A DNA stretch of 4,165 bases from a virus (Duplodnaviria; Heunggongvirae; Uroviricota; Caudoviricetes). Both the position numbers and the translations under genes were made by a program. Of the stretch, positions 2,451-4,165 are shown in pieces (within the stretch, counting starts at the first letter, position 1; the number at the start of each line of letters is the position of its first letter). Location of the stretch: the IMG/VR virus record IMGVR_UViG_2534681736_000020. One strand, 5' to 3'. Below the pieces are notes generated by a model. That model did not search any database, had not been told where the DNA came from, and worked only from the letters and a program-made list of their open reading frames with translations.

Positions 2451-2749
2451 GAATCAACTCCATCAGATAAGCATGCACTACAATCACCTTCAGCATGAAC
2501 TACATGTGTTTGCCCCAAACGAATGCCGCTCGCATACTCAGGCCAAATAAGCTCCCAATCATGGGGTCGTAGCTCCGCCCTACTTACTTGGCCTTCCGTC
2601 GCAGATTCGATCATAAGGGCGCGGGTTGGAGATATAGCTGTTCGTCCAGACGCCATTTGCGATAAGTAAGATGGCGATACACCAAGTCTGGCCGCGAATT
2701 TCTTAGCATCACCAACCCTTAATGATTTAATAAACTCTTTTAATGTCAT
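2447..2749 (-). CDS. Cro/YdaS-like HTH transcriptional regulator (Cro analogue)
   Basis: 100-aa ORF with ATG at 2749..2747 and GAGGAAGG Shine-Dalgarno at 2758..2751. HTH motif KKFAARLGVSPSYLSQMASGRTAISPTRALMIESAT. Divergent from the repressor gene and first gene of the replication-side operon. Confidence 0.8.
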   Translation of the reverse strand: MTLKEFIKSLRVGDAKKFAARLGVSPSYLSQMASGRTAISPTRALMIESATEGQVSRAELRPHDWELIWPEYASGIRLGQTHVVHAEGDCSACLSDGVDS

Positions 2750-2759
2750 ACCTTCCTCG

Positions 2760-2846
2760 GTTTAGTGTTTTTTTGCGAGTTTAGTGTTTAATAAACCATT
2801 AAGTCAAGTATTTGCTTGTTTAGTGATTACTAAAGATAATTACCAC
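2760..2846. promoter_or_regulatory. Divergent promoter/operator region (PR-like and PRM-like) between the cro-like and repressor genes
   Basis: Plus strand (repressor): -35 TTGCTT 2812..2817, 17-bp spacer, -10 GATAAT 2835..2840, ATG at 2847. Minus strand (cro-like): -35 TTGACT at plus 2802..2807, about 18-bp spacer, -10 TAAACT at plus 2778..2783. Three direct repeats: GTTTAGTGTTT at 2760..2770 and 2779..2789, GTTTAGTGATT at 2818..2828. The 11-mer GTTTAATAAAC at 2786..2796 is the reverse complement of GTTTATTAAAC at 3810..3820. Confidence 0.5.
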
Positions 2847-3218
2847 ATGCAAAAAAAAGAAATTCGCCGTTTACGTCTCAAGGAGTGGTTTAAAGATAAA
2901 ACTCTGCCACCCAAAGAGAAGAGCTACCTATCTCAACTAATGAGTGGGAGAGCCTCGTTTGGAGAAAAGGCTGCCAGAAGAATAGAGCAAACATACGGGA
3001 TGCCGGAAGGGTATCTGGATGCGGAATACGCAGAACAACCGGGGGGTTCTCCACCACATGCAGGGTTAACGTCTAATCAACTGGAATTATTGCAGATTTT
3101 TTCAGCCTTCCCTGAGGATGAGCAACGCCAGATAATCAGCGAGTTAAAGCAGAAAAAAGAATCAATGGAAGATCTCATAGCGAGATGGATTGCGGCGCAA
3201 AAATGCCGCCGCGCCTGA
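2847..3218 (+). CDS. paaR2: CI-type phage repressor-like HTH regulator, 123 aa; probable PaaR2-like regulator of the downstream toxin-antitoxin pair
   Basis: The track ORF 2784..3218 starts at GTG inside an operator repeat; the first ATG is at 2847, 7 nt after the GATAAT -10, with no Shine-Dalgarno, so probably leaderless. HTH motif SYLSQLMSGRASFGEKAARRIEQTYGMPEGYLD. The C-terminal LELLQIFSAFPEDEQRQIISEL resembles the DicA/CI-like C-terminal region. Size and gene order match my recollection of PaaR2 (symbol from recall, unverified). Confidence 0.75.
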   Translation: MQKKEIRRLRLKEWFKDKTLPPKEKSYLSQLMSGRASFGEKAARRIEQTYGMPEGYLDAEYAEQPGGSPPHAGLTSNQLELLQIFSAFPEDEQRQIISELKQKKESMEDLIARWIAAQKCRRA

Positions 3219-3238
3219 GTTATAAAACCGGAGGAAAC

Positions 3239-3430
3239 ATGAATAGAGCCCTTTCACCAATGGTTTCTGAATTTGAAACCATTGAACAAGAAAACAGTTA
3301 CAACGAATGGCTGCGTGCGAAAGTAGCAACGAGCCTTGCAGATCCGCGCCCAGCAATTCCCCATGACGAAGTTGAGCGCAGAATGGCAGAACGCTTTGCT
3401 AAGATGCGCAAGGAACGGAGCAAGCAGTAA
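3239..3430 (+). CDS. paaA2: Small antitoxin, 63 aa, of a ParE-type toxin-antitoxin pair (PaaA2-like)
   Basis: The track ORF 3185..3430 has an N-terminal extension overlapping the repressor 3' end. The ATG at 3239 has a strong GGAGG Shine-Dalgarno at 3229..3233 with a 5-nt spacer. The product MNRALSPMVSEFETIEQENSYNEWLRAKVATSLADPRPAIPHDEVERRMAERFAKMRKERSKQ is small and charged, and its stop lies 1 nt before the toxin ATG. Matches my recollection of the 63-aa PaaA2 of E. coli O157:H7. Confidence 0.75.
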   Translation: MNRALSPMVSEFETIEQENSYNEWLRAKVATSLADPRPAIPHDEVERRMAERFAKMRKERSKQ

Positions 3431-3431
3431 A

Positions 3432-3710
3432 ATGTTACCCGTGTTATGGCTTGAAAGCGCAGATACCGACCTAGATGATATAACTAGTTATATTGCTCGT
3501 TTCGACATAGATGCGGCTGAACGCTTATGGCAGCGATTAAGGGGTTGTGTGCTGCCGTTATCCGAACATCCGTATTTATACCCACCAAGCGACAGAGTAC
3601 CTGGCTTGCGTGAGATTGTAGCCCACCCTAACTATATAATTCTATACCGCGTAACAACATCAAGCGTTGAAGTAGTAAACGTGATCCACGCAAGACGCCA
3701 GTTTCCCTAA
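3432..3710 (+). CDS. parE2: ParE/RelE-superfamily toxin, 92 aa (ParE2-like)
   Basis: The track ORF 3336..3710 includes an upstream in-frame extension; the real start is most likely ATG 3432, 1 nt after the antitoxin stop. Product MLPVLWLESADTDLDDITSYIARFDIDAAERLWQRLRGCVLPLSEHPYLYPPSDRVPGLREIVAHPNYIILYRVTTSSVEVVNVIHARRQFP has typical ParE-family size and features. Symbol is from recall of the paaR2-paaA2-parE2 module. Confidence 0.8.
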   Translation: MLPVLWLESADTDLDDITSYIARFDIDAAERLWQRLRGCVLPLSEHPYLYPPSDRVPGLREIVAHPNYIILYRVTTSSVEVVNVIHARRQFP

Positions 3711-3728
3711 CTTTCACTACCAATAGAA

Positions 3729-3775
3729 ACATAACAACCGCAACGACTTTATCAAAAGCGTTGTGTTTGTTATGT
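3729..3775 (+). other. Long imperfect inverted repeat (17-bp arms, 13-nt loop) just downstream of the toxin stop; possible terminator or processing/recognition structure
   Basis: ACATAACAACCGCAACG (3729..3745) pairs with CGTTGTGTTTGTTATGT (3759..3775), with one mismatch and one G-U as RNA. The T-rich GGTTTAGTTTTTA follows only after a CCCGC gap, so this is not a canonical intrinsic terminator. Confidence 0.3.
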
Positions 3776-3777
3776 CC

Positions 3778-3822
3778 CGCGGTTTAGTTTTTACTTGACT
3801 TAAGTTTAATGTTTATTAAACT
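3778..3822 (+). promoter_or_regulatory. PL-like promoter with overlapping palindromic operator, mirroring the PR-like module
   Basis: -35 TTGACT 3794..3799, 16-bp spacer, -10 TAAACT 3816..3821. Perfect palindrome AGTTTAAT-GTTT-ATTAAACT at 3802..3821. Upstream repeat-like GTTTAGTTTTT at 3779..3789. TACTTGACTTAA at 3791..3802 is the reverse complement of TTAAGTCAAGTA at 2799..2810. Confidence 0.4.
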
Positions 3823-3914
3823 AAAAATACCAACCCACCCCGCCCCACAGAACGCAGGGAAATACTTCGAGTTACCCGGCAGTGGTCAGGGGTTAAGTAG
3901 CCAGCCCGAGGCGT

Positions 3915-4088
3915 ATGAACATGACGGCAGGGTTCAACTTTAATAACTATGCAGCAGGTTTTTGTTCCGCTACCCCGGCGTTAAGGGGAAACAGAGGGTT
4001 TCTCAGTGGGCGAAGTCAAACATCAGAATGGAAGGCATCCCGGGATCGGCAAAGAAGCAGCAATGGCGCTTTATATTGACATCAGCGC
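3915..4088 (+). CDS. Doubtful small ORF, 57 aa, Arg/Gly/Ser-rich
   Basis: Hand translation: MNMTAGFNFNNYAAGFCSATPALRGNRGFLSGRSQTSEWKASRDRQRSSNGALY. GAGG lies 4 nt upstream of the ATG. Low-complexity composition, so it may be non-coding leader sequence. Confidence 0.15.
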
Positions 4089-4165
4089 CATTGCAGGACA
4101 GGTAAGAGTTATCAGAGCGGTAACTAAGCGGTATGCGCCTTTACTTCAGAAAGTCTCTGGTGAGT
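4063..4165 (+). CDS. Possible 5' end of a gene continuing past the right edge of the window
   Basis: ATG at 4063 (AAGAAG 5 nt upstream) opens MALYIDISAIAGQVRVIRAVTKRYAPLLQKVSGE..., which stays open to the window end. Same strand as the repressor operon and the predicted PL-like promoter. No recognisable homology. Confidence 0.25.
   Translation, partial: MALYIDISAIAGQVRVIRAVTKRYAPLLQKVSGE

Follow-up and report, generated by a model that had tools for sequence, protein, structure and literature searches.

In phage lambda, the operator OL of the early-left promoter consists of three 17-bp sites that lie ~2.4 kb from OR, and lambda CI represses through looping between OL and OR. In the Qin prophage of Escherichia coli K-12, the promoter dicBp is found at the same place as the one considered here, downstream of a CI-like repressor and on the same strand, and it drives ydfABC-dicF-dicB-ydfD. 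DicA represses this promoter through operators akin to the ones that separate the repressor gene from the cro-like gene (Ragunathan et al. 2023, PMC10448788). PMC10448788 credits the dicBp/DicA operators to Bejar et al. 1988.

The closest described system is the locus itself. Jurenas et al. 2021 (mBio 12:e02947-21, PMC8630535) studied it in strain EDL933 and named the promoter PL933P, with PaaR2, YdaS and YdaT as the analogues of CI, Cro and CII. The −35 and −10 elements were described as identical to those of PR933P and the operators as resembling the PR/PRM ones, with GTTTAGTAA as the consensus inverted repeat (PMC8630535). The same paper counts three operators at PL933P, OL1-OL3. In a two-plasmid assay a PL933P-gfp fusion was active and was repressed ~100-fold by PaaR2 and by YdaS, while YdaT had no effect (PMC8630535). 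EMSA and footprinting of the two repressors concerned only the 97-bp OR region (2750-2846 in our numbering) and 5′ RACE only paaR2 and ydaS, and the ORFs downstream of PL933P were assigned no function (PMC8630535).

The stretch of DNA analysed here, called the window below, has 4,165 nucleotides. Positions 2700-4165 occur with 100% identity in many chromosomes of E. coli O157:H7, and according to RefSeq the locus lies within a prophage adjoining ynfA/speG. The sequence is the same as that of PL933P/OL1-3 in EDL933, with no difference, and of the EDL933 primers listed in Table S3 of PMC8630535, all 19 that were tested map exactly to the window. The window is thus the immunity region of the cryptic prophage CP-933P, with ydaT and ydaS on one side and paaR2-paaA2-parE2 on the other, and we are highly confident that 3782-3828 is PL933P/OL, the early-left promoter/operator region of this cryptic lambdoid prophage (Sp12 in Sakai) of E. 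coli O157:H7.

The minus strand carries a dnaC-like gene (293-1033) and an O-like replication gene (1040-2017), both assigned from the ORF listing and Pfam, followed by ydaT (2025-2450; Pfam YdaT_toxin) and ydaS (2447-2749; Pfam YdaS_toxin/HTH_3), to which the published cloning primers map exactly. The 97-bp intergenic OR region, with PR on the minus and PRM on the plus strand, was located by half-site and operator-pattern scans, and the EMSA primers FL1/FL2 map there. On the plus strand follow paaR2, encoding the CI-like repressor of 123 aa (2847-3218; primer F-1-PaaR2 maps to 2847), the antitoxin gene paaA2 (3239-3430; Pfam PaaA2, E = 1e-19) and the toxin gene parE2 (3432-3710; Pfam ParE_toxin, E = 2e-16). 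Residues 1-71 of PaaR2 match PDB 7NKV/8C3K (E = 5e-41), solved structures of the N-terminal domain of this repressor, deposited as ‘Phage repressor protein CI’; the protein has no Pfam match and no peptidase domain, and its diverged homologues are limited to five phage records, one of them at 45% identity. Two further elements can be mentioned here. The start codon of ydaT is overlapped by TTGATT-TTCATG-AATCAA at 2440-2457, at the position of PRE933P, and this sequence, read by eye, matches the published YdaT box TTGATT-N6-AATCAA (PMC9986795). The 5′ part of parE2 contains a perfect 16-bp palindrome, ATATAACTAGTTATAT, at 3478-3493; only two other inverted repeats of the window have perfect 8-nt arms.

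The layout can be compared to that of lambda. In both cases the repressor operon is followed, on its own strand, by an outward-facing early-left promoter, operators of the OR type cover its −35 and −10 elements, the CI and Cro analogues repress it, and OL/PL is one boundary of the exchangeable immunity region. Accessory genes are found between the repressor and OL, namely rexAB in lambda and paaA2-parE2 in CP-933P. An earlier analysis of this DNA, made from the letters alone and called here the sequence-only reading, had proposed the classic lambdoid arrangement of two outward-facing promoters flanking the repressor operon. This is indeed what is found: PR on the minus strand drives ydaS, ydaT, the O-like gene and the dnaC-like gene, and PL is on the plus strand. 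There are differences to lambda as well. The two systems have no sequence homology, CP-933P has two clear 18-bp operators with a 4-bp centre, the OL-OR distance is ~1.0 kb compared to ~2.4 kb, neither an N gene nor nutL (boxA/boxB) is present within 130 nt downstream, and PaaR2 has no LexA-like cleavage domain, unlike lambda CI.

The immunity system of Qin, on the other hand, is unrelated to that of CP-933P. It employs DicA/DicC, operators of the TGTTAGTCAT type and a TTGACC-17-TAATCT promoter, and there is no toxin-antitoxin pair between the repressor and the promoter. In the dicA-ydfA intergenic region of Qin (locus L128, 2842-3010), the TTGACC-17-TAATCT promoter is accompanied by a TGTTAGTCATGGCTAA operator.

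We now consider the promoter and its operators. A consensus scan recovers the TTGACT-16-TAAACT promoter of the sequence-only reading at 3795-3822 on the plus strand, with the −35 hexamer at 3795-3800 and the −10 hexamer at 3817-3822. It is located 85 bp beyond the parE2 stop codon, on the same strand, and points away from the repressor operon. Transcription is predicted to start at 3827-3831 (plus strand), that is, 5-9 nt past the −10 hexamer, where the immunity module would also have its right edge. It is important to note that the consensus score of 9/12 is by itself at chance level, with five such promoters in the window compared to 4.6 expected, because the −10 hexamer matches at only 4/6 positions and the spacer is 16. 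At PR, on the minus strand, the same scan gives TTGACT at 2807-2802 and TAAACT at 2783-2778, separated by 18. The proposed mirroring of PR by PL hence holds for the hexamers, which are identical, but not for the spacers.

The two regions have more in common than their hexamers. The −35 hexamer of PL lies within the 12-bp block TACTTGACTTAA at 3792-3803 (plus strand), which is the exact reverse complement of 2799-2810 in the −35 region of PR, and a search with this block gives two matches where none is expected (200 shuffles). Likewise, the 11-bp block GTTTATTAAAC at 3811-3821 (plus strand) is the exact reverse complement of 2786-2796, within the PR operator, with no match expected by chance. 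Both repeats had been described before with the correct relationship, although each was placed one position too early, at 3791-3802 and 3810-3820, respectively. The same shift applies to the 20-bp palindrome AGTTTAATGTTTATTAAACT, which is at 3803-3822 and not at 3802-3821. It had been called perfect, but this is true only of its 8-bp arms, AGTTTAAT and ATTAAACT, which are perfectly complementary, the central GTTT not being self-complementary. The AGTTTAATGTTTATTAAACT repeat is one of the three inverted repeats with perfect 8-nt arms and a spacer of 0-6 in the window, compared to 0.47 expected, and the chance of meeting such a repeat within 55 nt of DNA as AT-rich as that around 3803-3822 is P ~0.02.

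This repeat has as its core an 18-bp operator site, GTTTAAT-GTTT-ATTAAAC at 3804-3821, which overlaps the −10 hexamer and matches the operator pattern exactly. A second site, GTTTAGT-TTTT-ACTTGAC at 3782-3799, overlaps the −35 hexamer and belongs to the GTTTAGT repeat family; it has two mismatches, its left half-site being of the consensus type and its right half-site, which holds the −35, being degenerate. The OR operator sites are found at 2760-2777, 2779-2796 and 2818-2835, and PRM there is on the plus strand with paaR2 leaderless. All ten copies of the half-site GTTTADT in the 4165 bp of the window fall within 2729-2824 or 3782-3821, compared to 1.5 copies expected, and none of 200 shuffles reaches ten. 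When the full pattern GTTTADT-N4-AHTAAAC is searched in the 19.5 kb of the prophage with at most two mismatches, six matches are obtained compared to 0.55 expected. Four of them are at OR/OL (2779-2796, 2818-2835, 3782-3799 and 3804-3821), two exact, one with one mismatch and one with two, and the two matches elsewhere both have two mismatches. These exact 12-bp and 11-bp matches, half-sites and 18-bp patterns bear out the suggestion that PL and PR have operator determinants in common. A third strong OL site was also searched for, and two strong 18-bp sites are visible, together with a lone weak half-site, GTTTGTT, at 3765. In a set of 13 close variants, which have too little divergence for such a comparison, no stronger conservation of the operators than of coding sequence can be detected.

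The published reporter data can be placed on this map. Primer F-PL-SacI maps exactly to 3711-3731 (plus strand) and R-PL-BamHI to 3807-3828 (minus strand), and the assayed PL933P-gfp fusion, with the fragment 3711-3828, therefore holds the whole module in the plus orientation. Since this fragment is active and repressed by PaaR2 and YdaS (PMC8630535), the proposal of an OL/PL analogue that drives plus-strand transcription is supported, and was in fact already known: PL933P/OL was correctly rediscovered from the raw sequence, but it had been named and reporter-tested in 2021 and is not new.

On the basis of these elements, a mechanism can be outlined. The σ70 promoter TTGACT-16-TAAACT directs plus-strand transcription to the right, leading away from the repressor operon, with each of its hexamers inside a predicted 18-bp operator of the GTTTAGT-N4-ACTAAAC type, the same type that overlaps PR/PRM ~1 kb upstream. 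PaaR2, and YdaS at higher levels, would occupy the OL sites directly and block RNA polymerase, presumably by steric occlusion at both hexamers, and binding to the two OL sites, which are 22 bp apart, could be cooperative. With OL and OR occupied, both outward promoters would therefore stay off while PRM expresses paaR2-paaA2-parE2. Once the repression is lifted, transcription would begin at around 3827-3831 and proceed through a conserved leader into ydfC, dicF, dicB, ydfD, the exonuclease gene, xis and int.

Another option is that OL acts mainly as a set of distal looping operators, which strengthen the repression of PR and the autoregulation of PRM through PaaR2 octamers, with transcription from PL being secondary. 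Looping between OL and OR across ~1.0 kb by a PaaR2 octamer is possible: the same type of site occurs at OL and OR, ~1025 bp apart from centre to centre, lambda CI provides a precedent, and PaaR2 is reported to form octamers in solution, as cited in PMC8630535. However, all relatives examined have a promoter at this site as well, and we consider it rather unlikely, though by no means far-fetched, that looping is the main role. It should be stressed that such looping complements the assignment of the region as PL/OL and is not exclusive of it.

The relatives just mentioned were obtained from a search of 5426 complete E. coli genomes with a 201-bp query, window positions 3700-3900, which gives matches in ~3700 of them. 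In 593 genomes, which carry the whole module, the match covers most of the query. In another 3000 and more, the match begins only at query position 125-139, corresponding to 3824-3838 in the window. Five of the partially matching genomes and 120 IMG/VR loci were retrieved for comparison. They have unrelated repressors, followed by a promoter and palindromes of their own and then by the common leader, beginning with ATACCAACCCACCCCGCCCCACAGAA. Since each has its own promoter in front of a common leader, the site represents the conserved PL position of a Rac/Qin-like group of lambdoid prophages, and since the homology to genomes with unrelated repressors starts only at 3824-3838, the exchangeable immunity module ends at the PL start. 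In 16 heteroimmune types, the −10 hexamer of the best σ70-like promoter ends 3-8 nt ahead of the common leader. Judged from such alignments, the comparison fixes both the predicted transcription start and the edge of the immunity module. The relation between OL and the upstream region can also be examined across these types. At least one 10-mer is common to OL and the type's own upstream region in 10 of the 16, compared to 33 of the 240 non-self pairs, and for 8-mers the difference between self and non-self sharing has a Mann-Whitney P of 1.6e-6, the types not being fully independent.

We have also considered what lies between parE2 and OL. A long imperfect hairpin with 22-nt arms is predicted at 3729-3775 (plus strand), with a folding energy of −24.8 kcal mol−1 and z = −4.6. 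Transcription of the paaR2-paaA2-parE2 operon probably terminates here, which would make the hairpin an analogue of lambda t_imm, albeit a non-canonical one. The hairpin has no adjacent U-run. At least seven of the heteroimmune types have a canonical terminator, with a GC stem and a T-run, just upstream of the −35. The basal pairs of the hairpin are broken in variants that change its right arm at 3773 and 3775 without compensation, and only the upper stem is therefore supported. Close relatives vary most in the linker 3771-3781.

The stability of this hairpin just upstream, together with the canonical terminators at this place in the relatives, could be taken to mean that the region is mainly a terminator or insulator of the toxin-antitoxin operon, in which case the promoter-like hexamers would be incidental. 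We find this very unlikely, as the hairpin is separate from 3782-3822 and without an adjacent U-run, and a fragment containing both the hairpin and the promoter drives gfp; the terminator and the promoter are neighbouring elements rather than alternative readings of one sequence.

Finally, the idea that the PL module has no function in regulation and is merely what recombination has left in a decaying prophage, namely a partial, inverted duplicate of the PR region, for which one can cite the cryptic state of CP-933P, its frameshifted int, and variants mutated in the −35 or the operator, is extremely improbable, given that the cloned fragment is active and repressed ~100-fold by PaaR2 and YdaS (PMC8630535), that only the operator and promoter elements, differently spaced, resemble PR and no contiguous duplicated block is seen, and that a promoter occupies the same position in 16 heteroimmune relatives. 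The variants in question are IMG/VR records with the same immunity type: in L028 the PL −35 is changed to TTGGCT, and L117 has three substitutions in the −10-proximal operator with OR unchanged. Such −35 and OL mutations are consistent with decay of individual copies of a cryptic prophage.

With the region taken as PL933P/OL, the genes presumably under its control can be discussed from the gene order. On the plus strand after PL follow ydfC, dicF, dicB, ydfD, an exonuclease gene, xis and int, the last being a frameshifted pseudogene; DicF is identified by an Rfam match of 76.7 bits. Because of the downstream ydfC-dicF-dicB-ydfD, PL933P corresponds in position to dicBp in the Qin prophage of K-12, and dicF and dicB should consequently be induced on derepression. 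Compared to other Rac/Qin-like prophages, CP-933P has lost two genes, ydfA and ydfB, from the interval that separates the leader from ydfC (3992-4165; L001 10293-10735). In their place there is a gene for a CxxC...CxxC zinc-ribbon protein of the ECs_2282 family at 4141-4347, on the minus strand and thus antisense to PL transcription. In phage Evi an overlapping plus-strand ORF is annotated instead of this gene.

We now turn to the leader itself, which at 3835-3930 (plus strand), in the initial ~95 nt of the PL transcript, is predicted from covariation and covariance-model matches to form a three-part hairpin. Its helices are P1 (3837-3841/3889-3893), P2 (3845-3848/3882-3885) and P3 (3853-3859/3875-3881), the last closing an almost invariant 15-nt loop, CAAUACYYCGAGUUA, at 3860-3874. 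The hairpin is followed by an invariant tail at 3894-3912, in which GAGG (3908-3911) is separated by 9 nt from an AUG (3921). The leader is almost invariant within E. coli, and at least 16 heteroimmune types of prophage have it directly after their PL promoter, the motif starting ~8-15 nt past the predicted promoter start in nearly all copies. In K-12, Rac has it between racR and ydaG (L129, 3018-3113, minus strand), while Qin keeps only the last ~35 nt (GTTCCGCTACCCCAGCGTTAAGGGGAAA), the first ~135 nt with the hairpin being absent. When species-representative genomes were scanned once with TAAGTAGCCAGCCNGAGGC, the genera Arsenophonus, Phlomobacter, Symbiopectobacterium, Serratia, Pectobacterium and Superficieibacter were seen to have it. 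A phage recorded as Actinobacillus phage has a copy as well. Further copies are those of loci L131-L176. Two of these, L167 from a Candidatus Nanosynbacter MAG and L168 from a Collinsella MAG, carry an E. coli-type leader with full covariance-model score, and are probably due to binning contamination by E. coli prophage DNA.

The structure emerged only when per-sequence constrained folds were combined with a nearly gapless alignment. By minimum free energy alone, the fold of 3829-3995 is no better than that of shuffles (z = +1.5), and RNAalifold on a plain MAFFT alignment gives only an invariant 3-bp hairpin. In the constrained folds, all copies adopt the same three-part hairpin with differing stem sequences. 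In the nearly gapless plain MAFFT alignment, called A3, 78.9% of the cells at the paired positions can pair, compared to 29-40% for slid controls, and both partners have changed in 15 of the 22 pairs. The stem covariation extends over E. coli, Serratia, Pectobacterium, Symbiopectobacterium, Superficieibacter, Arsenophonus and the recorded Actinobacillus phage. A3 has a covariation score of 0.441, while shuffles give 0.155 (none of 500 is as high) and slid partners no more than 0.109. With a covariance model derived from A3, 52 copies are recovered, three of which lack the search word TAAGTAGCCAGCCNGAGGC. In a model-fitted alignment, the paired cells increase to 84.6% and the double changes to 18 of 22 pairs, but this alignment is biased towards the structure because it was fitted to the model.

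Several other identities were considered for the leader. A protein-coding ORF (3915/3921-4079) was rejected because indels among 87 variants shift the frame; it also has no Pfam match, and from the conserved AUG the reading frame stays open for anything between 4 and 58 codons, without encoding a conserved peptide. No Rfam family corresponds to the leader (E ≤ 1 for the window, E ≤ 10 for the leader), the only hits being chance matches to mir-4703 (at the 3729-3775 hairpin), Xist and TLS-PK6, and the 13-nt core of the leader appears in no paper of the literature searched. Of the known O157 and EPEC prophage sRNAs, AgvB and AsxR were discarded since both are at the PR′ moron site and the Pas sRNAs since the preprint mentions none of the neighbouring genes. 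The Rho-dependent t_rac was discarded since it is inside racR and belongs to the PRM transcript.

A comparison to HK022 putL, a structured antiterminator RNA (PMC9378689), is also of interest. Like the leader, putL starts within a few nt of the PL start and is found in a lambdoid phage without recognisable N or nut. The leader, however, has one long three-part hairpin and a 3-bp mini-hairpin rather than two comparable stem-loops, and there is no second copy of it downstream of PR in CP-933P. Homology to put was dismissed, as neither BLAST nor motif searches give any similarity and the covariance model has no match in the HK022 genome. The same model gives no match in K-12 Qin (L128) and no second copy anywhere in CP-933P.

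Within 130 nt past the leader, no boxA-like sequence (at most two mismatches) is present in the window or in its E. coli relatives, and the E. coli copies have no boxB hairpin either. Elsewhere, boxA is found in 20 of 43 copies, mainly in Arsenophonus, compared to 0.02 expected per 130 nt. In the Arsenophonus/Phlomobacter copies (L135, L146, L158, L139, L131, L160 and others) and those of Symbiopectobacterium (L145, L155), the canonical boxA GCTCTTTAACA is 22-29 nt past the leader and is followed by a lambda-like boxB hairpin, CGCUGAAAAAGCG. We take this boxA and boxB pair after the leader in the Arsenophonus-type copies to resemble lambda nutL.

Taken as a whole, the leader may be an undescribed cis-regulatory RNA for the early-left genes (dicF/dicB, kil, recombination, xis-int), a proposal that we put forward tentatively and with somewhat less than even confidence. 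Possible mechanisms for such an RNA are processive antitermination, attenuation coupled to Rho or to translation, or stabilisation of the transcript at its 5′ end.

To the published description of PL933P, the present analysis adds the exact coordinates of the repeats and the promoter, the 16 versus 18 spacers of PL and PR, the boundary of the immunity module, the identity of the downstream genes and the leader RNA. The last of these is conserved and apparently undescribed. Most genomes of E. coli have it, K-12 with its Rac prophage among them, and it is the part worth following up. In E. coli O157:H7, a major pathogen, the CP-933P switch governs a ParE toxin module together with the cell-division inhibitors DicF and DicB.
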